A DNA stretch of 57,100 nt, the filler included, from Sphacelaria rigidula (lineage: Eukaryota), in the NCBI GenBank assembly GCA_964200075.2. It is 8 parts of 8 records of this genome, joined end to end, with 100 filler letters (N's around TTAATTAATTAA, not from the genome) between each part and the next. Parts side by side here need not be neighbours in the genome. Positions count along the whole stretch, not along the records: positions 28,603 to 35,652 come from CAXNAA020016755.1; 7 more parts are not named here. One strand, 5' to 3'. A model generated the notes under the pieces. The model made no database searches, was not told the DNA's origin, and saw only the letters and a program-made list of their open reading frames with translations. The position numbers and the translations under genes were made by a program. This document shows, one piece after another, positions 1,064 through 35,652 of this stretch; the first letter of the stretch is position 1; every line of letters starts with the position of its first letter.

Positions 1064-1259
1064 CGAGTTACTTGATCTTAAGAGAGGGGAAGCAAGTTAC
1101 TCGAACTAAGTGAAGGGAACCAAGCCACTTGATTTTAGTTCACCTGAGGGGCAAGTACTTGGGCTGAGTGTAGGTGAACCGAGTCATTTGATATCAAAGT
1201 AGCTGAGGCAAGTCACTTGCTTTTACTGTCGGTACTTGGTTGGTGAGGTCAGTCACTTA
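1064..1259. repeat. Degenerate tandem array of the palindromic motif CAAGT-N-ACTTG, about 29-bp period
   Basis: Motif variants start at 1064, 1093, 1121, 1152, 1180, 1209, about 1230 and 1249. Confidence 0.6.
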
Positions 1260-2145
1260 AAGTCAGAATAAGGGAGGGAAGTTTGTCCTATTGATATTGT
1301 TTGGTAATGCTGGGACCGACTCGGTGGACTGGTTCCATGGATCTAAACACAACCTTTGCCTTCGAGATGGAGGCGTTATATGTAGGTTATTGCACTAAAC
1401 AAATATGGGTACCTCGATCAAGTTGTGCACTTCAGTGCATAGTCTAAGTTACCTTATATGGGCATGGAGCGGACTGTGTTGCGTTCTTCTCGGCACCGAG
1501 TTCATTGATTCGGGTCGTTCAGGGGTCTGTCGAAAAATATTTCGGGACACGTAGGCCCCAAGATCGATTATTTGAGTTGTTGATGGGGGGGCACCCATCC
1601 TGCTGTCCCCTAGTTTGCAACCGAGGCGTTGGTGGATGCGGTCAGCTGCAGTGTACAGAGATCACAGCTGGAGCAAGCCCTTCATGTCTGCCGTTACGTT
1701 AAGCCGTGAGTCCACAAAAAAACGCAGACGAGCTACATGGGCGGTCTGAACACGACCCGAAACAATGTTTTAGATCCCAGACACATGCGGATGATGGCAC
1801 CAACCCCTCTTCACGGACCACTCCATGTCGCCATTAATTTAGGCGTAACTCCCGGGCGACGCACGCGTGCATACAAAACACAATCGCCTACCTCGAAATT
1901 CGGCAATCCAGCCCCGACGAGGACCCCTCACGTCTACGTGCACGTTCAGCGGCAACACGTTCCTGCACTTGAACGTGGAAACGTTCTTGCAAGTCCAAAA
2001 CTCCTTGCAATGCACTCTTAATTTGAATATCGTCCAAAACATCACAATTCCATTCCCCCGCCGACGAAGACGCCAGCACCGAGAAAGACGTTCGAGGGGC
2101 ACGACCAAACATCACGTGGTGCGGCGTACTGTCGTAACGACGACA

Positions 2146-4503: not shown

Positions 4504-4584
4504 GCTCCACTAAGCGTTCCACCGCCTCATCAAGCTCCTCGGACACCTGCCCCCCCGCCTCCTAGAGAGCATGAACCGACAAGC

Positions 4585-6355
4585 TCACTCTGCGACTGGC
4601 AAAAAAAGCAGGCGTCTCGACACTCGACCCGGGCGACGAAATTTCATTTTCAGGGACTCTAACAGCCGATCATACGGATCGACTCCGAGTCCCCGAAGCA
4701 TCGGTAAGCCCAACAGAACGACACCATCCATCCCCGGCATGATCGCAAACGATATCGGGCGTAATTTCGCTGGCGCCCAGGTAGTCCTGAACGCCAACTG
4801 TAGGGGGATCGTACGCTCCGTGACATTTATACGTTGCCCCGATGCGGTGATAGCCTGCCGCGCTCGGAGCGAGAACGGAATGCGGATTTACTCACCAGGG
4901 AGTAGACGCTCTAGCATCTCCACAATCACCATCGACACGCTCGTGAAATGAGCGCCTGAATCCAACACAGCGTTGACCGATATGACTCCCCGCGCCCGTT
5001 GATTTGGAAGATGTAACTCTGCAGGAATATGTTTTTCTTGATCCTCGACTGGCAACTGCTCCGCCAACTGATTTGTCGTGATCCCCACTTGGCGCCACGG
5101 CTGCGCGTGCGGCGCAGGCATAGACGCCCCCGCTGGGGTCACCGGCACCGCCGGCGGGTATGAAGCCCCGCACGCAGAACCAAATTGCAGCGGTACTCCG
5201 GCCGACGCAGCAGCGGATCCAAGTTTCAGCTGAAATCCGGCCGGCTCAGCAGCAGGCGTCTCGCCTTGCTCTGCTGCCGGCGGCGCCGGCACCGAGCCCC
5301 ACACTGGAGTGGTCGGTTCCGCCTGCATCGCCCGTTGCGGAGCAGCAGCCCCTGCGGCTGAGCCGGACCCAGAACCGGACCCCTGCTGACGCCGTTGCCC
5401 CTGCTGCTGCTGCTGCTGCTGGGAACTCGACTGTACACCTCCATTGCTGGAGGATCCGCCTCCGCCACCACCCCGATTACCTTTTCCTCCTTTGTGATTG
5501 CGAGGGCGCGCGGTACTCGTCTGCCCAGACTCCCCCTCGGAAGGCGTTGGGCACTTGCGTGCGTAGTGGCCTACCTGGTCACACTGAAAGCAAGGGGTAT
5601 TGGCGGCAGCACTGCCTGCGGATTTTGATCCGCGGTTACGTGAGCTCGAAGACTGCGGCGACGAAGTGGATGATTTCCCGAAAACTTCAATCTTCCGCCA
5701 TGCCTGAGCCTCAGCCACCACGGTATCCGTGACTAAGTACGGGTCTGACTTCCAATTGATTTCGTGCTGTAATTGCACAAGTACGGCGTGTTTGAATTCC
5801 GCCGGTGCCAGACCCTCCACCATCGCTTTCGTGATCGCACCGCAGCGGGCCCTGGACGGAATTTCCCATCGGAAGAACGGTAAACCATCTCGACGTTGAG
5901 ATTTTTCGAAAAATATGCCTTCAACTTTCCAATGATTGGCTCCACCCTCTCACGCATGGTCTTCCCCTTGTGGTTCATGGCGCCAGCCTTCGCCCCGCCG
6001 CGGACGCCTGTGTTAGCTTTACCTCAGCTCCCGCCGCATGCCCTGCATGCTACTTGATCGCTGCAGCCAATTACAGCGGCGTTATTGTGTTCTTCTCATG
6101 AAATCTTCTCGCAAAAACGCGTTGGAGGGGGGTAGGCACGAGTTGCACCATGGAAACCACCTGATGCCTTACCGCACCCCCCGCATTCGCATGCTCCACC
6201 CGCTTCTTGTATCCCACGGATTTCGTATAAAACGAACGAGAAGCAGACTCATAGTAAAACTTCCCGTAACTGGGATGCCGCAACTCTTCTCTCAGAACAA
6301 CTGGGGTTGCGGTCGTCTCCGCTGGCTCTTCGGCCGGTACCTCTGTAGTCGACAA
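4585..6355 (-). pseudogene. gag: gag-protease of gypsy element 1, frameshifted
   Basis: Consecutive ORFs 6071-6355, 5733-5978, 4888-5823 and 4585-4797. They contain a C-x2-C-x4-H-x4-C knuckle, a G/S/Q-rich linker, LDSGA and the C-terminal protease motif VVLLGLPML. Confidence 0.85.
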
Positions 6356-6561
6356 TTCCGAGCGGACCTAATCGAAGGCTGCTGAACCTTCTCGAACTCC
6401 ACAATTCACACCTGCCTTCGTCGCCGCACCACACAGCCGTGGGGTCCTATAAACTCCCGCTGCACGCAGCTCCAGCAAATCTCCAGTCTGGATCAATCAC
6501 GGGCCAGCCGCCTTCACAGCTACCTCAGCTTGAAACCTCCTCAAGCGTCCGTGACGCAATA

Positions 6562-6841
6562 TGTCCAAAGTTGTCCAGACTCCTCTCTACTGCCAGCAGA
6601 TTGATAGTACTGCAGCGTCCAATGCTGTTGAGGGACTCCCCAGTTCCACTGGCCTCAGGTTTCAGTTGTTAGCCTTCACAACACCCCTTATTATCCCGGA
6701 GTGCCACACAGGCACATGCTCCATAAACCACATCAGGGTATCACCCCTGTGTCCATGTCATCATCCATATCATCACTACAGATCCCAAGTCATCATCCAA
6801 TCATCACTATATACTCAACATGACGGCGTGATTTCGTCACA
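6562..6841 (-). repeat. Putative 5' LTR of gypsy element 1 (280 bp)
   Basis: The minus strand reads TGTGACG...TTGGACA (TG..CA termini), followed 2 nt later by TTGCGTCACGGAC as a candidate primer-binding site just upstream of gag. No second LTR is present to confirm it. Confidence 0.5.
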
Positions 6842-7051
6842 GTGCGAATCATGTACCAAGAAGTCATCCGGTATGAATCGCGGATGTTGAAGTTGCACGT
6901 TCAAGATCATACCGCACGAATCACGAACTGGGGCAGGGGGCAGCGCGGAACAACAAATCGGACACGTAGCCCCCCCCTCCCCCCTCAGCAACTCATTGTA
7001 GGCTGTCATCCAAATGCAAGATAATCAGTAGGCTTCGGGCCGAACAATCTT

Positions 7052-7151
7052 NNNNNNNNNNNNNNNNNNNNNNNNNNNNNNNNNNNNNNNNNNNNTTAAT
7101 TAATTAANNNNNNNNNNNNNNNNNNNNNNNNNNNNNNNNNNNNNNNNNNNN
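7052..7151. other. Artificial assembly spacer N44-TTAATTAATTAA-N44
   Basis: Identical 100-bp spacer occurring 7 times in the window; it has stops in all six frames. Confidence 0.98.
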
Positions 7152-9228
7152 CTATTCATGTCGGGGAAAGCGAGGATCGTTGGTGATGCTAGGGAAGACT
7201 TGAGTGTCTGGAATGCTGTTTCCTGGTGATCACCCCACGGAATAGTCAACTTTCGTGCATGACATGAGGCAAATTCTTTGTTGCGAAGAATGTTGGTCGA
7301 AGGGGCGGCTTTTATGCTGTACTTCTCGACAAACTGTCTGAGATACCCGGTGAGTCGGAGAAACGAACGGAGTTCCTCAACAGTGCGTGGACGTGGCATC
7401 TTGGCGACTGCGGTGAGTTTGGACGGGGCCGGTTGTACCCCTGTGCTATCGAGCAACATGCCAAGAAATTCCTGAGACGGAGCTGCAAAGCTGCACTTGG
7501 CAAAGTTCACCGAGAATCCTGCAGGCGACAATCGTTGCAAGATTATGGTCAGTAGTGCCAAGTGCTCATCCCAAGTAGGGCTGGCTATGAGGATGTCATC
7601 TAGCCAGCTGTGTACACCGGTCAGGTTGCCTATCGTTGACTTTACCCTACGAGTGAAAGCTGCCGGGAGTGCTGTAAGTCCGAAACCCGCCCTGGTGAAC
7701 TCGAAGAGTAGGCCGTCCGCATCTCTGAACGCCGTTTTGTGGCGGTCTTTTGCGGCGATCTCGACTTAGTGGAATCTTGAGGCTAGATCTAGTTGCGTAA
7801 AATACCTCTTGTCTTTGAGACCATCAAAAATAGACTGCATGTCACCCAGCCCTCCGCTATCAGACACTAAAAGCTTGTTCAGAGTACGCCAGTCGATGCA
7901 CAGGCGTAAGGTACCATTTTTGTTTTTACACAAAGACATTCCGCGGCCCATGGAGAGGTTGAGGGGCGAATAACTTCGCGGTCAAGAGCCTTATGAATTC
8001 CTTCCCTGATCATTCGGCGTTCTTCCGGCGAGAAGCGGCGTTGTTTTGCGGCGAAAGGCGTGCTACTTTCGTCGATCAATGGTAATTCTAGCTCACCATT
8101 AATGCAGGCTGGCACTCGCTTGGGATCCGTGGGAAACAGTCCTGCTTCCACAAAATCCCGTTGGACGCGCACCAGTTCCGCCTTCTCTGCTCCCCCAAGC
8201 TGCCCCATGTTTGCATCCGACACACGGACCTGGCTAGGTTCTGAGATAAGTTGACCCCGCTCGGGGCACGATGGGGGTGCGGGCACGGTAGGTTGGTCTA
8301 CCGTTGATGGTGTGTCATCGAAAAGTGAGTGAAGGCGAGCAGGATCGCGCACGTTGAGGGCTATCAAGCGCGCGATTGTTCCGCGTGTCTTCACTTCGGC
8401 TTTATCCTTACCTCTGTTTACTAACTTACAGTAAAATAGAAACCCTGGTATCCACCACAACAATCCTTTGGCTATCCCCACCAACGCTTCACCGTCCAGG
8501 TCGTACTTAGCCAAGGGCAGGATCAGCACTAGCTGCTTATCCTGGGGTTAGGGTCCCATGATGACCGATTCCACCGCCATGCTTACGAATCCATCGATGG
8601 AGACGGAATGCTCGGCCAGCTTGACGTTCCACTCCCTCGTGCCGTCGTCTTCCCAGGCAATGTCGCTGTAGCTGGGGAATTTACAGGGCGCGGCAAGAGG
8701 CACGGCTAGCGAACAAACTTCGTTGAGCGTTTCGAGGGCCGAGATGTTCGGTTTAGCATGTCGGGGGCTATCATTGGTCAAAAACGGGATCCACGGTGCG
8801 GACGGGGTAGGGCGAAACCCTCCTGTGGCTTTGAACTCGAGAGTGCTACGGTTTGCCCTAAAAACCTCTGCCCCAAGAATGAACCCGTAAGGTAGGTCCT
8901 CTACCACCCTGACTGTTACTTCACGAACGCGAGTATCCTTAGCGAACAAGATAGGTATCACGACTGATCCAACTATAAACATCGGGGGTACCTTGCTCCG
9001 TGAGGGGTTGGCAGCGCGAAGGGCGCCAGCATTGTTCGTGTCCAGCTTGGCATGTATTACTTCTGCTTTTATGAGGTAACGCCGCAAAAAACCAGACATG
9101 TAATTGCCCCCACCTGCCCCGGTGTCCAACAGTACTTCGAGTGGCCACGACTTCCGAGCCCGGTTCCGGCGCCAGATCTCTCCCGCCACCCACAGTTGGT
9201 TACCGAGACGGCCTGCGATGGCTGCCAA
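7152..9228 (-). pseudogene. pol: pol (protease-RT) of gypsy element 2
   Basis: ORF fragments 8548-9228, 7879-8529, 7766-7951 and 7152-7561 join through stops and frameshifts into protease plus RT with a WLDD motif near 7595-7606. Confidence 0.88.
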
Positions 9229-9276
9229 GTCCTCCTCCAGCAGGTTCCCCAGGTTGAGAATACCTGGGGCGTCCCC

Positions 9277-11215
9277 TCATTTTTCGCTGTTGCTGTCGGA
9301 GGACGTCCCTTCTTCTTCGCCTTCCCGTCCACCATCGCTACTCTCGTTGATCAGGCCTATGTCGATCGCCGCTAGGTATTGGGATTCCGTAAGAGCTGCG
9401 AGGCGCTTTCGGGGGACAGCGGCTCTACGGTGGGCCCGGACGCTCCTGTAGTGAGCAGGCGAGATAATGCCGTGCGTGTACGGACAGGGAGTACCGTCAC
9501 GGCGGCGGCAGGTACCTGTGAAAGCGTGGCCGAAGCAGATCTTGTTCCTGCGGAGGTAATCGATGACCTCGTCTCGGTCGCCAGTCGGGGAGGAAGCGGC
9601 TTGCTCGTCACGGGTGCTCACAGCCGAGGATGAACTTGGAGGCGGGGGTGGTGCAGCAGGCGACAAAGACACTTCTTTCGCAGCCGCTACCCAACCTTGG
9701 CTCTGAACTTCTCTGGTCGACCGTTGCTTCTATTCAACAAAAGGAACACCGTGCTGTCCTGGGATGGCCCCTGGTGTGTTGGCGAATGCTGCCGCCAGGG
9801 TCGGTGTCTGCTGCTAAGCGCGCTTGTTCAACTGCGGTTGCGGTTGCGCGTACTCTATCTGTGGTAAGATTCTGGCAGCGGACGCAGGGTCTGCGGCAAG
9901 ACGGGGCATCAATCCTTCATTTTCACCGCGGAGCGTAGCGAATTGCGCGGGGGACATTTGTTGAATATCCTCTAGCGAGAAAAGGCGATCTGGCCCTACC
10001 GTGCGACCTGTTTTTTTTCTGGGCGGGCTTCCTGAAATGTGACGAGGGGCGCGCAGTGAGAACATTGATAAACTCTTCGTACAACCCTTTTACCACTTCA
10101 CCACGGCGGCGCATAGGTCCCCCCAGGGGGTTTTGCAGCTCCTCTGCCATGTCGGTGAGCTTGGTGTCTGCTACACTCATTTTCTCGTGGAACAGTGATT
10201 GCACGCCCTCCCTGCGAGCTTCATCGGGCAAGACGGCTCGGACAATGCATTCATATAGTTTGTTCAGTTGCTCTTTCGTGATGAAAGTCCAGAAAAAGTC
10301 AGTCTCAGTGGCATGCGGACGGCTTGCGCTAGCTAGGGTGGCTTTATAAGCCAACCAAACTCGATCAGCCACATGCTTCCAAGATTCACCGTTTTTTAGG
10401 GTTATCTCCTTCAACGCTTCTCGTGCATTTTCGGCGGAGTTACTGTTAAGGGCTTGTTCACGCAGCGACAGACGCAACCAATCGGTAGCCGTTTCCTGAT
10501 TATGGCGGACAATTTCCGTTCCGCCTGAGATTCGGTACACCCGAACGTCGGTGCCCGATAGCAGCGCTGTGGCAGTAGTACTACCCTTTGCAAGCAAGTC
10601 CAAGAGTAGGTCACGGCGGCGGGGCGAGTACTTGTCGACTTTAGTGCCCCACCTTCCTCCACCCAGCGGTACGTCTTCAGGGAGCTTCAGCGCGGCACGT
10701 TCCACGTGACGCAATGTGCTCCAAATCTTTTCTTGGATACATATTGCACTGTTCGCTATGGTTAGCTTACCTGGGAAAGTGCCCGTGTACACTGGCATCC
10801 TTGAGGTGTTTGCAATGCGACTCAGCACCCGTTCGCTCACCTTAGCCAGTTGATTGGCTTCGGCCACTTCCACCCCTTCCTCCTTGTTGACGCTTCCCTC
10901 CGTCTCGTGTCTGTCCCTGGATGACCGATTGTCACGGTTCGTTCTGGGACGGCTCGTGGAGCGGTAAGTCACGCGGGACAAGTTGCGGCGAGGAAAGGTA
11001 GAACGAGAGCGCGAGGGGCGGAGGGAGCTACTGCGAGAACTACGGGGGTCTCGTGAATCGGAACGGCTACGATGACGGCGATGAAAGCGAGAGCGGGAGC
11101 GAGAGTCCCGGGAATCGGAACGACTGCGGCGTGCCGAGGAGAACCGGGAGTCTGAGCGGCGTCTATCGTTCTGCCTTCCCCGTCCCTCACTACGTTCAGC
11201 GCCCCTGCCAGACAT
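9277..11215 (-). pseudogene. gag-like protein of gypsy element 2 with N-terminal RS-rich tract and a CCCH zinc finger
   Basis: Lies directly upstream of the protease. The 430-aa ORF starts with an Arg/Ser-rich tract, and a downstream fragment has CFGHAFTGTCRRRDGTPCPYTH (C-x8-C-x7-C-x3-H). Confidence 0.7.
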
Positions 11216-11555
11216 TTTTTTTCACGTGTAATATGCTTTACTTATCAACTAATACAGCTTGAAACAGTACAGCATAAACCATCGGTGGGGCGCGAGTGTT
11301 TCGTCAATCCCCATGGTCACAATGAGATGTGATCCAAAAAAGCAGAGATGCGCAGCGACACAGTTTTTGTTTGCCCCATATCAGTATGAGGCAAGAAAAC
11401 AAGAACCGATAACAACGGCCGAGAGAGGGAAAAGGACGCCGACAGGGCAGAAGGGGGAAAAACGGAGGCATCGCGTGGATTAGTACATGTTTGCAATGAC
11501 AGTCAGCGTTGTCAGCGTTCAAGGACTGGTGATCTTTTGCAAGGACTCACTATCT

Positions 11556-11685
11556 TGTTATGATGCTTTTCCATTTTGAGAATGCTCAGTCGGCGAACAA
11601 CGTCTCATCATCACGAAGAGGTGCATTTCAGGGGAACAGTTGCGCCTCGTTTGGGAACAGTTACGTGGGGACCTCGGTTGTAACA
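11556..11685 (-). repeat. Putative short 5' LTR of gypsy element 2 (130 bp)
   Basis: Bounded by inverted TGTTA...TAACA about 340 bp upstream of the gag ATG. No second copy is available. Confidence 0.35.
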
Positions 11686-11919
11686 ATTGAGGTACATATG
11701 GTAATGCCTGTCGTCTATCGGTAAAAGCTCATGCGGTCAAAGTGGGGCACAGAACAAACAGCAGAGTAGGAAACTGCTTGTGACTTCCAACATGCAGGTG
11801 TAAGAAGCATTACGTGCACACGAGGGCTACACAGACAGTGCGATAGCCAGCGGGGTACAACTACCCATGGGCGGTAAAGGCAAAAATCGCAACGCCTCAG
11901 GCGGGACAGTAACCGCAGA

Positions 11920-12262
11920 GCAGCAAAACAAAATTGCATTCTTCTTTAGGTGGAACAGTAACCACACAGCAGGGTAACTGACAGCACAGCGGAAACAGCC
12001 GCAGCAACTCCAACAGCAAAGTTAATAGTAGCAACAAAAGCGACAGCAACACAGCAAAGCAGCAGCGACCGCAGCGGCCGTAACAACAGCAGACGATAAC
12101 AGGCAGAAGCAACGCCACCACCAACAACAACAGCAACAGACGATAACAAAAGCGACAGACGGTAACAGCAGCACAATAACAGAGACAAAGGACAACAACG
12201 AGAACCGCAACAAACAAACAACGAACAGCCACAACAACGGATAACAACAACGCGGCTGCACA
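11920..12262. repeat. Degenerate (CAA/CAG)n low-complexity tract
   Basis: Runs of aac/agc/aca triplets; gives poly-L/V/C nonsense ORFs on the minus strand. Confidence 0.8.
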
Positions 12263-14202
12263 GCTTCCGCAGCTATCTGGAACTTGATGTCCCAAAACAC
12301 CCCGACGTAGTTGTAGGCTCTCTGGTTCGTTGAACTCGTGCAATCTCGTTCGACCTTATTGCATTTTATCGATTGTTTTGGCTAGGTTATTTCACTTTTG
12401 CTTTGGACGTCTGCAGCGGCGTGCTGATGAACCATCCCAGATGAACTCGTGCATAAAGCCGTTGGCGGTGCTCTGCTTGGGTTGTATGTAACGCAGTGCA
12501 ATGCGGCGGGAAACAACGCAATACCACGCACAGACAGGACGACAAAGCCTACCTAGTCCATGCTTACTCTTTACTGTTCCACGTAATTGTGATTGAGGTA
12601 ATCCGAAAAGAGAGTACAAGCATACCCTGGTGCAGTTTTTTTTGCTATTGAAACCAATGAGGGCACGCAACTGTGAAGCAGCGCGGTTGTGTTGTTTCGT
12701 ACTCGTGGAAAGAACGGCTTATGTTGCAATGTGGATTTTCTCACATTTGTGCAAGGCATACTATTCACCATATATAACTGGAGTGACGCGACAAAATGAC
12801 ACCTCAAACCTCCCCACAAAATATTTTTTTTTCGGAGGCACATGCTACGTCTTTGGAGATCATGCCGGAGTTGACTCTACACAAGCACGGTTGGACACCA
12901 TGTCATGGTTCGATACTCACCACCTAGGTGGGAAGGTGCCAGTTCAGTGGGCACCGGGGGCTAGCGGGCCCAAATACAATCGTTAGTATCGAAGCCATTG
13001 AGCTCGATTTACCATGTGGGGAGTCAACCCACACACCAATGACCAGACGCCATGCCCATGGTTCACGCCGGAGACAAGACCCATATGTTGCGTGCAATGC
13101 GTGCTTACATTGCGTGAAGACCAAAGACTCCTCTGAGATAGCAGTCCGTGATAGCGTTGACGCTTCTTGTATTATTGGCAACCGGCTGGTAGCTGCTAAT
13201 CGCGCGTTGAGATAGGTTCCCAAAAGACTGTGCGCTGAGTAGGGGAACACTGTCGGAATCAATCAGACTCAGAATGGCCCATGATCTGTCGGGCTAGACA
13301 ACGAAAGAGTATGACACATGGAATCTACTCGACTGGACAATAACCGATAAATCCGGAACAGGAACGTTTGCCCACGTGTGTGCCTTTTTCAACTCGCCAA
13401 CGACTCATTGCACGGTCTTATTTTTGCTGCTGACTAAGGCGAAGGCAATGTTCAATTGTTTTCAACTGCTTTGCTCTCATGTTCTCGTGACATTCGCTGC
13501 ATAACCGCTGTCTTCCTGCTCCCAAATCAACGAGAACGCAAAGGAATACCATGAACGCAGGCTTTTGTTGTTCCGGTTCCTGTTTGAAATTTTCCATCAT
13601 CTTGATCAGGCTTTTGTGGTTCGGGATCGACACCCCGCGAAAAAGAGCCAGTTTGGGCGACTTTCGATGGCAATAACACGCGCCACAGGTGTCAGATGAC
13701 ACCCAAACCTGAAAGGAAATGTACCGCTGCACCTTCTTCGTGCACTGCAAAAGAAAGCGCGTGATAAGATTCCTTGCCACCAGAGAAAACTCGTCAAAAG
13801 TGGTGAAAAATGTGAAATGATACATATACACAACATAATATAAATATATATAGAGAGGGAAATGTACCAATTAAGATACAGAGCCATTTAAGATACAAGT
13901 TGTTTTAATCGTTCATATCTCTGCGAAATATTAACCGTTTTCCGTTCTGTTTTTTTCTGCGTGTGCACAAGAGCACAGCGCTTTGTTTGAGTTATTGCAT
14001 GTGTCTCAAGCATCCGATAACGTAGTCTTACAGCACTGCGAGTAAGCGCGTATGTGTCATCCTTCTAAATCAGATTTTTGGTCGATCGGCTGCTAAGCAT
14101 GCAGAGAGCAGAACGTGCAGCACAGGCCGTATAAGCGGTACACAGCGGTCGTCCTAGCTTCCGTGCTGCAGCTACGACCTTTGACATCTCCGTCGGTGCA
14201 CT

Positions 14203-14302
14203 NNNNNNNNNNNNNNNNNNNNNNNNNNNNNNNNNNNNNNNNNNNNTTAATTAATTAANNNNNNNNNNNNNNNNNNNNNNNNNNNNNNNNNNNNNNNNNN
14301 NN
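14203..14302. other. Artificial assembly spacer
   Basis: N44-TTAATTAATTAA-N44. Confidence 0.98.
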
Positions 14303-14408
14303 CTCCGTCTCGAAAGGGATGCGTGTTCAATGGTCAAACGACAAAGGCAAGCAACAAATGCGTACGCCCCCCCCCTGCCCGAGGGTTCTCGGGATGCCTT
14401 GGTCGGGG

Positions 14409-14438
14409 TTAGGGTTAGGGTTAGGGTTAGCGTTAGGG
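14409..14438 (+). repeat. Interstitial telomere-type repeat (TTAGGG)x5, one unit TTAGCG, inside a dispersed repeat
   Basis: Read directly. It is preceded by TGCCCGAGGGTTCTCGG, a motif also found in the MITE at 55565-55865. Confidence 0.85.
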
Positions 14439-14622
14439 TTGGCGGCATCCCCATAGTACCAACCATTGTTTACGTATATTTGGTCAGATCCCCTCTTTAT
14501 GGATGATGACTGCCCTGATCTGTCGTAATGTAGACACTGTATGGATCTCGCAAAATGTTCCCCGCAACCTGCATGTGGCGATACGTGTGTGTGTGCTGTT
14601 GTACTTCTTTGTCTCTACGCAG

Positions 14623-14721
14623 GTATCGTGATGGCGTTGTACGCCCTGCTGCGGTCTAAACCAGACTCTTCGGCGGAGGAGATAGAAGCAGGCCTGGACG
14701 GCAATTTGTGCCGCTGCACTG
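14623..14721 (+). CDS. Internal exon of xanthine dehydrogenase/aldehyde oxidase (second 2Fe-2S domain)
   Basis: 99-bp phase 1-1 exon with a pyrimidine tract plus CAG acceptor and a GTGAG donor. It encodes (G)[32 protein letters not shown](G), with the GNLCRCTG signature of the xanthine oxidase family. Confidence 0.92.
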
Positions 14722-16264
14722 GTGAGCTTGATATTGAGGAGTCTTGTTGACGGGGTACTTTTTTTTTCATATTTTTGTTCACTTGAAAAATAAATGTATT
14801 TTTTCTTTCACCTTCTCAAAAACGTAGGTTGCTAAACCCCCCCCCCCCCCCCCCCCCCCCTGTCTGAGAAATACATTATTAGTCTTCGACTTTTTGTTTT
14901 TNNNNNNNNNNGTTTTTGTTTTCTTATTTTTCTGTGCAGTAAACAAAAATGGTCTTTTTCTTTCCACCTCCTAAAAGAGGAGGGTGCTAACCCCCCCCCC
15001 CCTCCCCCAACGCTAGATTTTGGGAGAAATTAATTATGTTTTCAGTCTTCAATTAATCTGTTGCCCGACGTGGTGAATATTTTTGCTCTCATTTGTTTTC
15101 GGACATTTGTTTTCGGACATTTGTTTTTTCCCCCCTCCCAAAAATTGGAAAACTTCGGGGAATAAAAAACAGACCCACAAGACAGACAGACCTCTTGACA
15201 GTATCGTTCCACTGCTTCCTTGAGTACGCAACAGGGGGCTGATTCGAAAGAGTCTACGCGAACTGGTTGACATCATGCATGGTTCCACCCCAAAATCTTG
15301 AATTTCGTGTAGGCTGCCAAATTGGAATATTTGGGGGGCTGACAGTCCCAGATGCCCACACACCGTGTGCAGGACACGTTTAAGTCTAAATTTCCGCCCT
15401 CGGGGCCGATTTTCGTTCCGCCAATTCACCATTTGCCCAGGATATCCTTGCCCCCCTTGGCCGAGGGACGTCGGTAAACCCTAGGTTGGGGTTAGGGTTC
15501 TGGGTCAGGGTTCTCGTCATTTTCAAAGATGTGTCAACCGTGGATTTGGCGCTACGAACTTGGGCAAACCCTCCTCGTATGGACGCTGGAGGTCAATTGT
15601 CGACCAGTTGGGGTGAGGGCTGCTGCAGGGTTTTGACAAGAGCAAAGTATGATTCAACCATGGAAACTGTTGACCAGTTTCGCTGAATCCTACGTCGCTT
15701 AGTTGGCTGATCGATTGATCGATTGATCCATTGATCGATTGATTGATTGTCGCACATTCAGTCATGGGCCACGAAGCCAGCCGTTATGACCATTAGGCGG
15801 AAGATATATCAATCATGTGCCCACGTGAAGAAACACGGTAACACTCGCGGAGGAACTCCGAGAAAAAGGTACTCCAGCGGAGTTACAAGATTAGAGCGTT
15901 TCGGAAAATCCCGAAATTGTCTCAGGATCAAGGCGCAAAAACGTCGGGATGAAAACATGAAAAACATTCAGGATGAAATCTTTCAAAAACTTCAGGACGG
16001 AAGCTGATATGACGTGACTCGACGTTACGTCATTGTTCGCTGTGGTTGGCCGCAGGTTGCCCCACCAAGTGTGCAATAAACCATCCTATTCGAGAATGCA
16101 CAAATCAGCACAGCGCTGCATTGTTGCGGGTCTCTAAGACTGACAGAACAGTATTATCACACGGTATCCTGCCGTCCGTAACACCATGTCCCGTAACACA
16201 TGTCCCGTAACATATCATCCCGTGCCATACCATCCCGTATCGCACCGTCCCGTCCTGAACTCTA

Positions 16265-16440
16265 CACTGCACTGCGCTGCACTGCACTGCACTGCACTGC
16301 ACTGCACTGCACTGCACTGCACTGCACTGCACTGCACTGCACTGCACTGCACTGCACTACAGTAAGTGCAGCATACAGTACAGTACATTATGCAATACAG
16401 TGCGTTATACAATACAGTACAGTACAGTACAGTACGGTCC
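16265..16440. repeat. (CACTG)n pentamer microsatellite grading into (TACAG)n
   Basis: About 18 CACTG units at 16265-16358, then degenerate CAGTA units. Confidence 0.95.
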
Positions 16441-17545
16441 GCTACATTACAGTGCAATGCAGACCACTGCAGTACATTACGGTACAGACAGCACGGGAGT
16501 ACTTTTAAAAAAATCACACAGTCGCATGGCAGCGAGTGTGCACTCTGCTATCCAGAACAGTGGTAAAAGATGTTACGAAGTCTAAAACGGAACGGCAGTG
16601 CTGCTGCGAGGTAAACTACGAGTCGTTCACACCGTCGTCCCCCAGCTCAGCATAGACGAGACGAGGCTGGGAAGAGTGGGGAGCTGTACCACGAAGGCAA
16701 CGTCTTGTGTGCGGACTGAGCATTTAAATTTCACGCAATACATCCAAGCGAATGCTGATACCATGGCGGAGGCAGGGAGATCCCGAGTCTACAACGACAA
16801 GTGTTGCTACTTCGTGACTGGTTCATTATGATAAGGATGTAAGTTGTGGTGGATATCCCACGTTGCTTGTGAGCGTATATTGACTGTGAACTGGCGATGA
16901 CATTGGTGTGTGTGTGGGGGGGGGGAAGAGGGGGGGAGGATTCCTCTCCGTCTCATCCTGAGTTCTGAAGTGTGATGCTACGGTAGGTGTGCACAAATAT
17001 TTCTTGAGGTTGGAATTGTTAGGAGCCCTTCATCTCATCCAAAATACGACTTATGAAAACATGTGAGGGTATGCTAAGATTACCATTCCAATGTGCTAGG
17101 AATATCCTGAATGAATTTGCAGACGGGGATGCCTTGACCCATATTCTTGTGCATCTAGAATCGTTGGGAGTCCCTGCATCAGACAAGATTTTGCGCAAAA
17201 AGTGCATCCCTACCGTAGCGTTGACCTGAAGCAGCACTGCAGAATTCAGGATGGAGGGCTCAAAAAAGGAGGCGACGATCCTGAAGTTCTTCAGGATGGA
17301 ATTTGTTCGTGTATGTGTACGGCATGTTCACTTTGAATTTTCATATGAAATAGCAGTAGCGGCCGCCACGCCTCGATGGTCGCATGGTTCAGCTGGCACC
17401 ATTAGGGGAGGGGAAACGCAGGAGGGATTGAGATCAGATGCGTCTACGGCGGCTTTTTTTTTTTCTCACAAGTGTCCGACTGATTTCCGCCGTTGAAATA
17501 GTGAGAACGTGACTGAGTTTGTCAGACGACAGTCGACGCGAGGCT

Positions 17546-30162: not shown

Positions 30163-33064
30163 TCGTGGCATTAAAATAACAACAGCCCGCCGCATTATGT
30201 TACGGGAATATGGGTATCAGCCTGGTTCGTGCACTGTGCAAGCGTTGTGCAAATTCATGTTTAATGACAGGATGCACACAGCAGATGGCCGGCTGTAATA
30301 TAAGTTTAACAGCAAGAGACAGTACATCAACAGTTTGATTCAACCAGTTTAGGTGCAAGATATCTCTGATTTTTAACAGGGTACAACAAGCTCCAATTAA
30401 GGGAGGCAGCATTGAAACGGCATCCTTCCGCACCATGCGATATAGACATACATGTGCTTATTGCAGACACATCGTGGTCCTGCATACATGCCGTAAAATA
30501 TCGGCTTCACGTAGACGAGAATAAGCGCTGCATGGAAGCGGTAGCTTGACTCAAAGCGACAGCATCAGCGCATCTGTTCGGTATATTTCGGGCTGCACAA
30601 TCAGTCCCACGTTTCACAGTAGTGAGTGATGGTTCACAAATTTGAATCTAACCCACATGCAACATAGACCAAGCGTCATCACCACGTTATCCAATGAACC
30701 GTGATATCAATTAAAACGGGCAGCACGACGTTATCAGCATGAGCCATCATTTCATTTTCCTTCATGGGTTATAGCTTGTTATGGCAGGGCAAAGTTGACT
30801 AATCACATCGCCAACTTCTTCAAACTCAAGAACTCGAGTAATGGAGGCAGCGGGGTCAGTGGAACTTTCGAATCATCCGTAGTTGAACTATAAAATGTAT
30901 AGACTATACGGATATTTCATGTTGACTGTACGGTATACAGTATGAACACCACCTGAACAGCTGTGACCGCTGTTACGGATATCCTTTTGCAGCGTGATAC
31001 CTTCCCGAGGGTGTGAGGTTACCGCAGATGATATGATACGACACAATAGTCCCGGTTATGGGAGCACCATGATACAAACAGAATAGTGTTGGCCATAGTT
31101 GTTGCTCCCATTGTGTGTGTCTAGTATGCAGGTCGAGTACTAGAGCGAAGCAACAAAAGCTTTTCGGTCATGCAAGTTATGGTGTCTCGCTAGCTCATGC
31201 AAATACGACTTACTTTTACATGACTACACATTTCACTATCTATTTGCGCACATCGTTCGTCTCTGACTGTTATGTCGACCTCCTGACATCTGCTCACTGT
31301 TTGAATCAAACATCTTTACAGTCTCACCGTTATTCTTGAAACAATCGTAAGCTCACAGCACGTGGGGGACAGTCCAAGGCAAAACGATACACGACAAACG
31401 TCAAGATTTCCTCGATCACAGCTTCAGGCCGATTCGATTTCTCTTTTTATCTTGGTGGTGTTGACTTGCACTTCCAAGAAGTAGTGAACACCAGCGTGTC
31501 ACCGGGTTGAATCGATCCCTGGAAAGAACCGGGTCGAACCAGATGTAAAAAGGCATGTTTATGTATTCCGCCTCTTGACGGATTACATCATCCTCACCCC
31601 TGATTGCAGTACCAGCCAGTTCCCGCAATCAGCCCTCCGGGCGCGTAGTGTCGTTTTGAATACCGACGGCCCATCATCGTACTACCCTTATCCACCACGC
31701 CACGCCGCGATACGTAACACTTTGGCCCCCAAACAGAAAGCCGCCATTCCTCGTCTAGCATTTCGCGTTTCTCGAAGAGGAGTTTAGTCCATTTTTACGG
31801 TCTCGGAGGATTCAAGACTGGCCTCTGGACAAACACAGAAGCTGCATAAAATACACTGTATCTGCAGCTGTTCACTTGAGAAAATCAGTTGAGGCCAACA
31901 ACCGTCACAGGGGAAACGTTGAGTGTCCAAGACGAGTGACGGCGCCATTCCCGCAAGCGGCAAACACGACAGCAAAACAATCTGAAACTCATAAGACTGT
32001 AAAACTCTTAAATGGGATGGTTGCCAAACAGCAGAGCCACAATCCGCCCTCATTGTCTCCGTGTTTCGTGTTTGCGGATGGGTCAAAGTCTACGGTCTCC
32101 CTTCACCTGATGCCATGCCACGGGGACCGGCCATTTCAGTCATATTGCGTTGTATTTTCCATCAGGGCATCTTCTTTCCCTCATTTTTTCACCTCTTTCT
32201 GCATTGTTTTGACTTCTTCTCTTTCTCTTCAAGTTTTTCTCCGCAGGTGTTTCGGTTTTGATTAACATGGGCAGATCTCCCTTGCTACACCGACGGTTTC
32301 TTTCGGTAATCGATTGCGTGCGACATTAAAGTGATCAATCAGCTATTTCACGTGCAATCAGAGGAGGGTACTAATGCTGGCATCAAAGAATGGAGCGTGA
32401 CGGGTCCCAGACCTCCTTCCAGCTTCGTGTCTCCATTCTCGACACTTTCTACGATAGCCCCCCCCCCCGAAACCAGCTAAAAGTATCACGAAACAAATGG
32501 CCATACAGCGACTGATGTTCGGGTTCAGGCTGCATGAAGCGCCTCATATTGGCGACACCAGAACGAACCCAAGCGTGGGATTTCCCAGCTTCTCGTTGTG
32601 CTCGGCTTTTCTCATTTCGATTAATGTGAAGATTTTGCCTCCCGAAACCTTGCACTTTTTTTTGGGGGGGGGGGTATTGTAGAAAGTGTCTCTCACACTT
32701 ACTTAGTATGTGAGACACGAAAACCCACACCATCAAGAGAAGGATGGAAAATATTGCAGTACGAATAGGAAGTCCACCACCAGCGTCGCGGTTCATCCGG
32801 GGATCGACTACTACACTACATCCACTTTTGGCGAACGCGTGCAACACATGATCATCGCACCTATATTCACGTTTGGACGAAATCTTCGTGGGACTTGGGC
32901 GTCGGATATCAGGTCTACACAACCTCACAAACACTTTTGCTGCAAAAAACCAAAAGCTCAGTCAACCGATCCTCGTCTATAGGTGCCGATGGTGCACGCT
33001 AGCGTTCGCCCGCATACGCCACGCCGAATCCAAACGTGATACGCGTAGCCGGTAGCATTATCCA

Positions 33065-35064
33065 TCACCCGTCGGACGTCCAAGGAGGGAGACCAGATAC
33101 TCGTAACTCCAACTTTACTTTCGACGTTTCGGCCTCGTCAGCTTGCACACCATCGATAACGCCAAAGCACCCGGACACCACTGCTGAGGATTCATGGAGC
33201 CATCTCGTACCCGCACCGCTACTACTGCTACTGGAGCTATTGCCACCACCTATGCTGCCCGTACCACTTGAATCGGAGGCCTGTTTCTCACACTCTGTGA
33301 CCGAAGTGCAACAGTGAGTTGAAAAAGAAACGGACGACTCCACCTTCATTCCTGTCACTGCACTTGCCCCTGGAGACACCTCGTCGTCAGACCCCAAGGG
33401 TATCTGTGCTGAGAGCAGCAGTGGTATTGCACCATCCCCCTCTGGATTGGGGCACGCACAACGGCGAGTGCCGACAACGGCCCGTGAACCAGAGCCCGAG
33501 CAAAATGCGCGTTTGCGCTTAATTTCTCGAACGTCAGCAACGCTTCCTCCACCATCCTCCGTCCGGCTACGGCGGTATGTCGCCACCCGAACATTGAATT
33601 CTGCGGTGTCGCAAACTGCAGTTGTGTTGGGCGTAGGAGCATGCTGTCGGTAGAACTGTGCCTCATGCTGGTTGTGCATCTCGGAGATACCCAGCTCGGA
33701 GCACCCCTTCTTGCCGGAACAACAATGGTTTACGCCCTCCATTCCCACACTGGCGTACTCAAAAGAGAAATCTGCAATCTTGCCCCCCGCAACACCATGC
33801 GATGGTTGCTTGAGACAGCCCTCGTCGCCGCACCCTTCCCTCACATGTACCATTCCCGCCCTGGCGTGCTCAGAGCAGAACTCCGCCTTCTTGCTTCCTG
33901 CTACACCGTACGACGGCTGCTTAAGACAGCCCCTATCGCCGCACCTCTTGTTCACATTTACCATTCCCGCCCTGGCGTGCTCGAAGCAAAACTCCGCCTT
34001 CTTGCTTCCTGCTACACCGTACGAGGGATGCTTCAGACAGCCCCTATCGCCGCACCTCTTGCTCACCAGGTCTATCATTCCCGCCCTGGCGTGCTCGGCG
34101 CAGAACTCCGCCTTCTTGCTTCCTGCTACACCATACGACGGTCGCTTGAGACAGCCCTCGTCGCCGCATCTCTTCCTCACACTTACCATGCCCTCCCTGG
34201 CGTGCTCGGCGCAGAACTCCGCCTTCTTGCTTCCTGCTACACCATACGACGGCTGCTTCAGACAGCCCCTATCGCCGCACCTCTTGTTCACCACGTTTAC
34301 CATTCCCGCCCTGGCGTGCTCAGCGCAGAAGTCAGCCTTCCTGCTCCCTGCAACGCCATACGACGATCGCTTGAGACAGCCCTCGTCGCCGCACCTGTTC
34401 TTCACATTTACCATGCTCGCCCTGGCGTGCTCGGCGCAGAACTCCGCCTTCTTGCTTCCTGCTTCACCAAACGACGGGTGCTTCAGACAGCTCCTATCGC
34501 CGCACCTCTTGCTCACTACATCTATCATGCCCGCCCTGGCGTGCTCACCACAGAACTCCGCCTTCTTGCTTCCTGCTACACCGTACGACGGCTGCTTCAG
34601 ACAGCCCGTATCGCCGCACCTCTTGTTCACATTTACCATTCCCGCCCTGGCGTGCTCGAAGCAGAACTCCGCCTTCTTGCTTCCTACTACACCATACGAC
34701 GAATGCTTCAGACAGCCCTTGTCGCCGCACCTCTCGGCCACCACATCAACCATTCCTGCCATGGCGTGCTCAGAGCAGAACTCCGCCTTCTTGCTTCCTG
34801 CTACACCATGCGATGGGCGCTTGAGATAGCCCTTGTCGGCGCACCTTTTGTTCACCACATTTACCATTCCCGCCCTGGCGTGCTCAACACAGAGCGCCGC
34901 CTCGTAGACTCGTGAACCGTACGATGACACCTTGGAGCAGCCCTCGTTGAGGCAATTTATCGTCGTGACGTCGACCGTCAGCTCCTTTTTCGCGTCCCCC
35001 TTCTCCGAGAACCTACCCCTGCTGGCAGCACGATCGCCAAAAACCCCGGAAAGCTGGTGATGAG
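33065..35064 (-). CDS. EsV-1-7 cysteine-rich repeat protein (about 11 tandem repeats plus a low-complexity C-terminal tail); terminal exon, 5' end probably spliced
   Basis: Uninterrupted frame (ORF 33065-35437). Repeats of 37-38 aa with consensus CGDxGCLKxPSYGVAGSKKAEFCxEHARAGMVNV(V)xKR at about 33721-34954 match the EsV-1-7 motif family expanded in brown algae. A candidate acceptor CTGTAG at 35070-35065 suggests the first ~124 aa of the raw ORF are intronic. Confidence 0.9.
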
Positions 35065-35652
35065 CTACAGTTGGCAACGACTGATTTAATTTAAAGAGAC
35101 AACGGCATTTCATGTGTTGCGCATAGTTCAGAAGATCACGAGACAGCTGCATCCAACAAGATGACACCCCATACACTCTTATTCGTATTAACATGATGTC
35201 CAAGGGTATTCGGCGGGTGAGGACGTCCTCTGCACTACGGTATACGCATCGGGGGCACATACGGAACCGGTATAGTACAAACAAGAATGCATGTGTTGCA
35301 GAAACACAAAGCCAAAATCTACACCCTGGACAAGACGGTTTGTGTCGAATATATAGTTGTCGATCATATTGGTATTTTGTCATGTATTGCCCCCCCAAAT
35401 TATATTGGTACCGTGGAATTATACCCATAATGTCCAATCAACATACAAGTATAGAACAATGTTCTCGTGAAATTGAGAGTTGAATATGGGATTGAGAGTG
35501 ACCTTTTTTTCGACCGGCGTGACAGTCACCTTTTCAATTGTTACACGACACGTTGGCTTCTTGCATAACAAGAGGCCCGTTGACCTTTAGAGCAGTAGAC
35601 CTGATCAACTGTTCGTTCACATTGGTTGACAGGGATGACTGCTTGATTTTAG

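Follow-up and report, generated by a model that had tools for sequence, protein, structure and literature searches.

The window, that is, the whole 57,100-nucleotide stretch of Sphacelaria rigidula DNA that was analysed, contains on its minus strand a gene for a tandem array of EsV-1-7 units. The gene lies in a stop-to-stop open reading frame of 790 codons (33065-35437). Eleven units of the Pfam family PF19114 (EsV_1_7_cys) are recognized in this frame with a score of 501.6 bits (cut-off 25; E 1.8e-154), which bears out the family assignment of the initial annotation, and the gene has no Pfam domain other than PF19114. All 98 matches of the array protein in one search carry PF19114, as do all of the 120 matches listed in a further search, and the best match is a S. 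rigidula protein with 55% identity. This is a real gene and a new member of a known family; taken alone it is an ordinary family member, though an unusually long one. When all six reading frames of the window were searched with a unit HMM, no further EsV-1-7 gene came up (next best E 0.09), and Rfam returned no match for the whole window.

The most likely coding exon comprises the array and a C-terminal tail, and starts at the in-frame ATG nearest to the first unit, a candidate 5′ end to which a second in-frame ATG is the alternative (Table 1). No run listed is recorded as RNA; contigs in three runs guessed to be RNA cover unique parts of the gene at 33068-33707 and 34921-35020, and the flanks left uncovered in these runs were given no weight. 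The array occupies residues 162-601. Residues 1-161, upstream of the first unit, match none of the other 218 collected proteins, while the tail matches 17 of these, all of them S. rigidula paralogues. The gene is followed, about 375 bp downstream, by a MITE-like repeat.

Table 1. Features of the EsV-1-7 gene, in window coordinates
Feature	Position	Strand	Description
Most likely coding exon (array and tail)	33065..35113	-	nearest ATG upstream of U1 to stop
Start codon (candidate)	35111-35113	-	nearest in-frame ATG upstream of U1
Alternative in-frame ATG	35150-35152	-	in-frame Met
U1	34844..34954	-	divergent first unit, C-x4-C-x15-C-x2-H, 4/4 ligands; unit HMM domain E 9.6e-10
U2	34730..34843	-	38 aa; second Cys ligand replaced by Tyr
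U3-U10	33833..34729	-	eight intact C-x4-C-x16-C-x2-H units
U11	33722..33832	-	degenerate; third Cys replaced by Ser, His by Tyr
U12	33635..33721	-	remnant unit, C-x5-C ... F-Y-R-Q-H
C-terminal tail	33068..33634	-	189 aa, acidic, pI 5.23, three conserved motifs
Tail motif SVADVR-x-x-KRKRA	33509-33520 (KRKR)	-	conserved motif
Tail motif MKVE	33338-33349	-	conserved motif
Tail motif SNVKLE	33107-33118 (VKLE)	-	conserved motif
Stop codon	33065-33067	-	end of the reading frame

Units, tail and predicted fold

Units U1-U11 span 33722-34954, which matches the array that the initial annotation had placed at 33721..34954. Its count of about 11 C-x4-C-x16-C-x2-H units agrees with the 11 Pfam units, but the exact pattern is found in only 8 of 12 units (U3-U10), and a remnant twelfth unit is present as well. 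The degenerate ends that it described are there, with a divergent U1 and a degenerate U11. Units 2 to 11, which it had called almost invariant, do share a similar scaffold but have lost three ligands (Cys2 in U2; Cys3 and His in U11). Altogether U2, U11 and U12 (3 of 12 units) each miss at least one ligand, and eight or nine modules hold a full set of putative C-C-C-H ligands. The invariant C/C/C/H columns suggest that each unit probably binds zinc. In the subfamily, the tail begins with a conserved U12, and at least 70% of 14 aligned members keep a Cys where U12 of this gene has Tyr.

Unit length alternates between 37 and 38 aa from U3 to U9, and U10 has 37 aa, resulting in a two-unit higher-order repeat of 225 nt. 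Tandem Repeats Finder reports a period of 111 nt with 10.2 copies (82% matches, score 1375) and a period of 225 nt with 5.1 copies (85% matches, score 1567). DNA identity is 94% between U3 and U9, 91% between U5 and U7, and 89% between U6 and U8. This pattern indicates that recent amplification of a two-unit (38+37 aa) tandem block built the array, and the scaffold is near-invariant mostly because the array is young. The array has 11-12 units compared to 3-7 in S. rigidula relatives, and unit number differs among close relatives. It is basic (pI 9.04), as is the family in general (median 9.22 over 180 proteins, 96% of them above pI 8).

The tail aligns collinearly with its S. rigidula counterparts, which share its end point. 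Both the tail and its KRKR are conserved in an alignment of 14 proteins, which comprises this gene and 13 of the 17 S. rigidula matches. The KRKR is NLS-like and may direct the protein to the nucleus. An ESM Atlas search with the tail as query gave no usable match. The tail matches none of the 45 collected proteins that carry a nuclease domain (see below), and this domain is absent from the window gene.

In the AlphaFold model of the array, each unit comprises two 3-residue strands and one helical turn. The units are thus predicted to be small beta/zinc-knuckle modules and not alpha-solenoid repeats, a model at odds with the helical solenoid in which each TALE repeat presents one residue to the DNA groove. 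Foldseek returned no match for the array model at E<=0.001 among 37 at E<=10; the non-significant rows are PHD, PZP and LIM tandem fingers and the nsp13 zinc-binding domain, with a best E of 2.3. In a wide structural search with VIA, none of 48,161 chains reached Z>=2, a search in which matches to single units may be missed because the model comprises 440 residues. A PDB sequence search with the array yielded a chance match only (E 0.36).

Variation among units and across the family

The residues that the initial annotation had read at three variable positions in the ten units U2-U11 are exactly right: K,K,T,R,E,R,E,R,R,E at position 4, R,H,Q,H,R,Q,R,H,Q,Q at position 9, and S,F,G,A,A,A,A,F,S,F after the third ligand (position 24). 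These positions belong to a set of at least seven variable columns (4, 9, 24, 33 and 35-37). The linker, which had also been described as variable, varies more than positions 4, 9 and 24. The codons at these three positions are all single-nucleotide neighbours of one another. Together they show 12 changes compared to 7.8 expected from the synonymous rate (ratio 1.54, P 0.098), which is no significant excess over neutral expectation for 10 units and positions chosen post hoc. The initial annotation had itself named variation no greater than the neutral expectation as counting against its proposal. The residues at positions 9 and 24 are mostly identical in the nearest unit pairs, so that few of the changes are independent. 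Purifying selection acts on the scaffold, where the first two codon positions show 23 changes, whereas the rate at four-fold sites predicts 78 (ratio 0.29). Overall, pN among units is 0.16 and pS 0.31.

Position 9 leads the family in mean within-array entropy, with 1.90 bits in 47 proteins of at least six units. It also ranks highest in 78 non-nuclease (algal-type) proteins (1.82) and in 18 nuclease-fused proteins (1.73), is top or joint-top in 33 of 96 arrays, and is occupied by R, Q or H in 58% of 1049 units. Among the three positions that had been singled out, position 9 therefore stands as the most unit-specific in the family, but positions 4 and 24 rank only 11th and 16th of 38 by within-array entropy in algal-type arrays. 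Scaffold positions vary too across the family. Among 69 arrays from giant viruses, taken as an independent set, diversity peaks at position 11 (1.92 bits), followed by position 9 (1.82 bits).

Between viral orthologues, pN/pS is 0.30 at position 11 and 0.42 at position 9, which suggests that position 9 is under purifying rather than diversifying selection. This signal is only moderate, since position 9 is among the fastest-changing positions over all 89 matched unit pairs, low-identity paralogues included, and differs in 28 of 78. A near-invariance of position 9 between orthologues, seen in a small sample (1 of 25 differing), was overturned by 18 disjoint pairs, in which the same 28 of 78 differ. 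In reciprocal-best units, position 9 differs in 1/18, 4/22, 6/14 and 2/5 by identity class, which is about the average of the variable positions. Diversity within arrays, together with constraint between orthologues, at positions 9 and 11 would fit unit-specific contacts.

Viral relatives and the proposed function

Of the 219 collected proteins, 45 share a conserved domain of about 170 aa at the C terminus. In IMG/VR, 582 of 606 pattern matches encode such relatives (at least 582 giant-virus stretches), and in all 80 loci that were kept, 1-13 EsV-1-7 units lie upstream of the nuclease-fold domain. Residues D343 and D358 of this domain are invariant, and E356, E359 and H362 are at least 90% conserved. 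Searches of Pfam (E<=10), NCBIfam, PHROGs and PDB profiles assign it to no family. Its AlphaFold model has a pLDDT of 89.2, and the best structural match is the catalytic domain of the homing endonuclease I-Bth0305I (3r3p; rmsd 3.2, 93/97 residues aligned) with a Z of 8.4, to be read against the best Z of 7-8 that is typical in VIA even for unmatched models. Vsr (1vsr) is matched at Z 6.5, and the 50 entries listed (Z 5.0-8.4), from 73 of 1000 chains at Z>=5, are almost all PD-(D/E)xK nucleases. The best Foldseek E is 1.1e-3. By fold and motif, the viral domain is predicted to be a Vsr/EDxHD-like PD-(D/E)xK nuclease fold. Vsr/EDxHD-like nucleases and mariner transposases are both families that act on DNA.

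Our literature search found no published account of a fusion between EsV-1-7 units and a nuclease. In I-Bth0305I itself, according to the available part of the report, DNA-binding modules at the N terminus precede the same catalytic fold (PMC3239194), and an EsV-1-7 domain is noted in an Ectocarpus mariner transposase in a source likewise available in part (PMC12477816). The accessible portions of published accounts call the function of EsV-1-7 proteins unknown, in agreement with the statement of the initial annotation that their ligand is not defined.

We propose that the array is a modular reader of nucleic acid, probably DNA, and give this a probability of roughly 0.5. The array is basic and comprises about twelve modules of 37-38 aa, each of which probably holds one zinc ion; its conserved Lys/Arg residues would confer a general affinity for nucleic acid. 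Contacts specific to each unit would come from the linker at 35-36 and from the loop that follows the zinc knuckle (positions 7-11, and position 9 in particular, mostly R/Q/H). The tail would target the protein to the nucleus and act as an effector or regulator. Zinc binding and DNA binding are inferred from these features, as are the nuclear location and any per-unit code. The window gene carries no nuclease, so the argument for DNA rests on its relatives. The nucleic-acid-binding role put forward in the initial annotation thereby gains indirect support, from the viral nuclease fusion, the mariner transposase and the basic charge of the arrays; none of these results concerns the antiviral or transposon surveillance that it also suggested. 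These basic charges would suit RNA and DNA alike, and transcripts or viral RNA could also be bound; RNA as the ligand is nevertheless unlikely, given that the fused enzymes come from families acting on DNA.

A rather less probable reading than DNA recognition, though one with some chance of being right, is that the arrays are scaffolds for protein-protein interaction, in which treble-clef-like zinc adaptors comparable to LIM and PHD use variable loop residues to pick protein partners. LIM and PHD fingers bind proteins, and PHD, PZP, LIM and nsp13 zinc-binding domains are the only fold rows, albeit non-significant, that the array model recovered. In addition, ArfGap, which is not a nucleic-acid context, occurs in 20% of the members of one ESM Atlas cluster of viral EsV-1-7 proteins, and R, Q and H are equally able to contact proteins. 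The recurrent fusion to a nuclease-fold domain and to a transposase argues against this, as do the uniformly basic arrays and the placement of 1-13 units before one conserved catalytic domain, a build typical of modular DNA readers.

The initial annotation went further than modular reading and proposed a TALE-like code. Taken strictly, positions 4, 9 and 24 of each unit would read one base or a short motif, with specificity reshuffled by diversifying selection. The family-wide diversity of position 9, dominated by R/Q/H, and the varying unit number among close relatives would fit such a code, but the low ranks of positions 4 and 24, the non-significant excess of changes among one-step codons, the few independent changes between nearest units, the constraint at position 9 between viral orthologues and the predicted beta/zinc-knuckle modules all speak against it. 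The proposal is not supported, the scaffold identity being largely the result of recent duplication, and it is very unlikely in its strict form. A simple one-repeat-one-base code is unproven, while a modular DNA reader is plausible. A last reading, likewise very unlikely, is that runaway tandem duplication in a rapidly growing family left a gene that has no function and is decaying. Ligands are lost in U2, U11 and U12, the array is longer than those of its S. rigidula relatives, its variable sites are close to neutral and a MITE-like repeat lies nearby. Against this stand a frame open over 790 codons, purifying selection on the scaffold, tail motifs that 13 aligned paralogues share, and contigs from the three guessed-RNA runs that cover unique parts of the gene.

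Modular DNA reading may be placed in a wider picture, which we regard as possible but well short of likely. EsV-1-7 arrays would form an unrecognised class of modular zinc-based DNA-recognition repeats, used in giant viruses as "zinc-finger nucleases" (1-13 units with a Vsr/EDxHD-like cutter) and in brown algae, by co-option and expansion, as nuclear regulators. Specificity would reside in the loop at 7, 9 and 11 and the linker at 35 and 36. Duplication and shuffling of units, of which this young array of 12 units would be an example, could then change the specificity. The viral fusion of EsV-1-7 units with a nuclease fold hints at DNA recognition by the repeats. If the arrays read DNA module by module, a large share of regulatory innovation in brown algae could become accessible to DAP-seq or ChIP. 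The array-nuclease genes of giant viruses would then represent mobile or defensive endonucleases of a new type, and the repeats could serve as a new protein scaffold for programmable DNA targeting.

Comparison with known modular proteins

The closest system is the EsV-1-7 family itself (Ectocarpus virus EsV-1 gene 7), which has the same repeat and the same tandem-array build. In the available parts of the sources, the family is described as expanded and clustered in brown algae (10.1101/2024.02.19.579948, 10.64898/2026.04.27.720984) and, in a preprint, as the largest orthogroup across the brown-alga genomes compared. The same partial sources place the developmental regulator IMM (Ectocarpus IMMEDIATE UPRIGHT), with five repeats, in this family. 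The window gene is not IMM, as its upstream part matches nothing, it has 11-12 units compared to five, and it has the tail that, among the 218 other collected proteins, occurs only in the 17 from S. rigidula.

LIM and PHD/PZP treble-clef fingers resemble the array in that a zinc knuckle and a short turn provide the ligands and the modules are in tandem, a likeness that shows no relationship at Foldseek E values of 2.3 or above. TALE arrays are similar in their tandem, near-identical units of about 34-38 aa, few variable positions, degenerate ends and variable unit number. However, variation in this array extends over at least seven columns and is greatest in the linker, no hypervariable di-residue was found, and its units are probably zinc-dependent beta modules instead of two-helix solenoid repeats.

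Poly-C2H2 arrays such as KRAB-ZFPs share tandem zinc modules, a conserved basic linker, a restricted polar alphabet at unit-specific residues, and lineage-specific expansion in gene clusters. Unlike in those arrays, no positive selection was seen at the EsV-1-7 variable positions. The C-C-C-H order, the x4/x16/x2 spacing and the predicted lack of a recognition helix also set the units apart from the beta-beta-alpha C2H2 finger with its C-x2-4-C-x12-H-x3-5-H pattern, and no zf-C2H2 match was found by Pfam in the array protein. For the giant-virus relatives only, I-Bth0305I (PDB 3r3p) offers a parallel, in which a C-terminal catalytic fold follows N-terminal modules; the viral N-terminal modules, in contrast, are EsV-1-7 zinc units and not NUMOD/HTH, and there is no match at the sequence level. 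In their array-plus-nuclease build, these viral relatives resemble engineered zinc-finger nucleases.

Anatomy of the array gene

The EsV-1-7 array lies in a minus-strand stop-to-stop open reading frame (ORF), with candidate start codons at the in-frame ATGs 35111-35113 and 35150-35152. Pfam matches this ORF to PF19114 (EsV_1_7_cys) over 11 stretches at 501.6 bits (E 1.8e-154), which confirms the family assignment of the initial annotation. The gene adds an unusually long new member to this already known family. Tandem Repeats Finder gives a 111-nt period at 33739-34886 (10.2 copies, 82% matches), and a 225-nt period fits slightly better (5.1 copies, 85%). The array was delimited into twelve units, U1-U12, numbered 5′ to 3′ along the gene. 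By this delimitation, the initial annotation had the coordinates of the array and all three residue strings (positions 4, 9 and 24 of the unit) exactly right, but it overlooked the ligand losses in U2 and U11 and the twelfth unit. A unit HMM run over all six reading frames of the window picked up no second EsV-1-7 gene. Two plus-strand ORFs run antisense to the array, at 33641-34915 (424 aa) and 33672-34829 (385 aa); these are probably by-products of the repeats, in frames without stop codons, and not genes.

Features of the array gene and its surroundings
Feature	Position	Strand	Basis
Stop-to-stop ORF, 790 codons	33065-35437	-	ORF calling in the window
U1, four ligands kept, x15 spacing	34844-34954	-	Unit delimitation
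U2, second Cys to Tyr		-	Unit delimitation
U3-U10, exact C-x4-C-x16-C-x2-H	33833-34729	-	Unit delimitation
U11, third Cys to Ser, His to Tyr	33722-33832	-	Unit delimitation
U12, remnant unit	33635-33721	-	Unit delimitation
C-terminal tail after the array, 189 aa	33068-33634	-	Tail comparison
Tail motif KRKR	33509-33520	-	14-protein alignment, Sphacelariales subfamily
Tail motif MKVE	33338-33349	-	14-protein alignment, Sphacelariales subfamily
Tail motif VKLE	33107-33118	-	14-protein alignment, Sphacelariales subfamily
Element of ~250 bp, ~375 bp past the stop codon, with terminal inverted repeats of 57 nt (74% complementary)	32441-32690
Retroelement ORFs: one RVT_1 + RNase H; adjacent ORF CCHC zinc knuckle, gag-like	2149-4509 and 4891-5949	-	Pfam

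The AlphaFold model of the array (pLDDT 80.7, pTM 0.41) predicts in each unit a pair of strands, three residues long, at positions 12-14 and 31-33, with a single helical turn at the C-x2-H ligands. No solved fold matched the model in Foldseek, where the best E was 2.3 (PHD, PZP and LIM rows), and a wide VIA search returned 0 chains at Z≥2. In the stretch of the model that leads from the zinc knuckle to the first strand, positions 7, 9 and 11 alternate, and they would share one face if the conformation is extended.

Duplication history and variable positions

Units of 38 aa and 37 aa alternate, as do two types of linker, and the closest unit pairs by DNA identity are U3-U9 (94%), U5-U7 (91%) and U6-U8 (89%). 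Therefore, the array is a young higher-order repeat of a two-unit block. In P0002, a collected S. rigidula family protein, the linker types alternate in the same way. Because nearest unit pairs are mostly alike at positions 9 and 24, the residue strings represent few independent changes. The codons are one-step neighbours at position 4 (AAG, AGG, ACG, GAG), position 9 (CGN, CAY, CAR) and position 24 (TCT, TTY, GCY, GGT).

The neutral rate was taken from four-fold sites on a neighbour-joining tree of U2-U11 (13 changes over 10 sites), and changes at codon positions 1 and 2 were tested against it by column class. Positions 4, 9 and 24 show 12 changes versus 7.8 expected (ratio 1.54; P 0.098, with columns picked post hoc), linker columns show 22 versus 10.4 (ratio 2.12; P 0.001, with an alignment that is ambiguous at the 37/38 indel), and all other columns show 23 versus 78 (ratio 0.29). 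Since the duplications, purifying selection has acted on the scaffold, and the variable sites evolve about neutrally within the array. It had been proposed that positions 4, 9 and 24 form a TALE-like modular recognition code, with variation above neutral expectation; this low-power test does not bear the proposal out in the array.

Across the family (218 other collected proteins; 1132 units including the window's own 11), mean within-array entropy is highest at position 9 in each of three sets: 1.90 bits in 47 proteins with at least six units, 1.82 bits in 78 non-nuclease proteins with at least five units, and 1.73 bits in 18 nuclease-fused proteins. This position is top or joint-top in 33 of 96 arrays, and carries R, Q or H in 58% of 1049 units. 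The entropy ranks of positions 4 and 24 are 11th and 16th among algal-type arrays and 6th and 7th among nuclease-fused ones, which makes neither of them special. Between orthologue-like pairs, the picture for position 9 is mixed. It differs in 1/25 of a first small sample of orthologue-like pairs, in 28/78 matched units from 18 disjoint pairs (among the highest of all positions), and, when 62 reciprocal-best unit pairs are split by identity class, in 1/18, 4/22, 6/14 and 2/5 of them; this divergence is close to the average of the variable positions.

Weak partial matches to the plant zinc-finger model PF24906 (Zf_WRKY19), at profile positions 1-13 of 24, occur in four family proteins (P0014, P0015, P0033, P0054). 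These hint at a resemblance between the unit's first half and a land-plant motif.

The tail and its genomic surroundings

Of the 218 other collected proteins, 17 match the tail, all of them from S. rigidula, and none matches the region upstream of U1. The stop position and three motifs (SVADVR-x-x-KRKRA, GMKVE and SNVKLE) are kept across 14 aligned tails, which argues that array and tail form one uninterrupted coding exon. KRKR is a putative nuclear localisation signal, whereas both MKVE and VKLE fit the psi-K-x-E consensus and would be candidate sumoylation sites. The tail is acidic and the array basic (computed pI 5.23 and 9.04). Paralogues have 3-7 units versus 11-12 in this gene.

Among 30 other long ORFs of the window, Pfam found retroelement matches only, and no viral hallmark gene. 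This argues against an inserted virus as the source of the gene, which looks like a host gene.

Contigs cover the unique gene parts 33068-33707 and 34921-35020 in three runs that are only guessed to be RNA, which is a hint only. Summed contig depth, which is not copy number, is ~800-17,000 over the array bins (33724-34974) versus ~10-220 in the unique gene parts in all four runs; as a hint only, this points to numerous near-identical EsV-1-7 units at other places in that organism. Over the inverted-repeat element, summed depth is extremely high in all four runs (up to 1.3 million in run X5), and the element is probably a high-copy MITE. The window also holds 15 runs of N: regular pairs of 44-base runs, which mark withheld sequence, about every 7150 bases (for example 35653-35696/35709-35752) and one 10-base run (14902-14911). 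One of the pairs sits ~220 bp upstream of the ORF, where it may conceal sequence of the promoter or of a 5′ exon.

Viral nuclease-fold fusions and a proposed role of the array

A conserved C-terminal domain of ~170 aa occurs in 45 of 219 proteins (P0043, P0083, P0079 and 42 others). In its alignment, D343 and D358 are invariant and D327, R341, P342, E356, E359 and H362 are at least 90% conserved; these residues fall within the motif RPD...IIEVDExQH. The AlphaFold model of P0043 (mean pLDDT 89.2) has no Foldseek row at E≤0.001. The best row is McrC (E 1.1e-3), and the other top rows are Hjc resolvases, a 'restriction endonuclease-like fold' protein, R2 endonuclease, BstEII, cap-snatching endonucleases, Can2 and Bax1. 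With VIA, 73 of 1000 chains reach Z≥5, and the 50 entries listed (Z 5.0-8.4) are almost all PD-(D/E)xK nucleases; the best match is the catalytic domain of the homing endonuclease I-Bth0305I (3r3p; Z 8.4, rmsd 3.2, 93/97 residues), and Vsr scores Z 6.5. Since best Z values of 7-8 are common even for unmatched models, this match is moderate, not strong, and with moderate confidence the predicted fold is a Vsr/EDxHD-like PD-(D/E)xK nuclease. The domain has no family in Pfam, NCBIfam or PHROGs, and a profile search of the PDB found nothing for it either. One member is named 'Endonuclease' in UniRef, and the ESM Atlas clusters, almost all from Nucleocytoviricota, carry the automatic name 'Endonuclease family protein'; PF19114 is present in 61% of the 819 members.

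When IMG/VR was scanned with a motif from this domain, relatives were found to be encoded by at least 582 loci (582 of the 606 pattern matches listed). All 80 loci kept have an ORF with 1-13 units ahead of the domain, most commonly 7 (24/80). Within the 69 arrays that have at least four x16 units (421 in total), diversity peaks at position 11 (1.92 bits) and position 9 (1.82 bits); positions 36, 25 and 24 come next. No position gave a sign of positive selection when 16 independent pairs of orthologues were compared (90 pairs of units, pooled pS 0.338): pN/pS is 0.42 at position 9, 0.30 at 11, 0.19 at 36, 0.17 at 35, 0.66 at 25, 0.52 at 28, and 0.16 in the nuclease domain. Positions 9, 11, 35 and 36 combine high between-unit diversity with constraint between orthologues. 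This would be the signature expected of unit-specific contacts, and idiosyncratic packing between units would give the same pattern.

Our main reading, held at roughly even odds (about 0.5), is that the array would act as a nuclear, modular binder of nucleic acid, probably DNA, with the conserved tail as its effector. Arrays of the family are basic (median pI 9.22; 96% of 180 above pI 8; about +2.6 net charge per unit). A protein-interaction scaffold is an unlikely role for the array, and RNA binding is distinctly improbable. A strict TALE-like code is harder still to credit. Least probable is a decaying array.

No publication on the giant-virus array-nuclease architecture was found in a literature search. 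With this architecture, which is abundant in giant viruses, the DNA-recognition hypothesis can be tested directly. An N-terminal EsV-1-7 domain is also described as a gain of the Ectocarpus transposase TcMar-2_Ec32 (PMC12477816). In I-Bth0305I, N-terminal DNA-binding NUMOD motifs are described as preceding the Vsr-like domain (PMC3239194), whereas in the viral proteins this place ahead of the catalytic domain is taken by the EsV-1-7 array.
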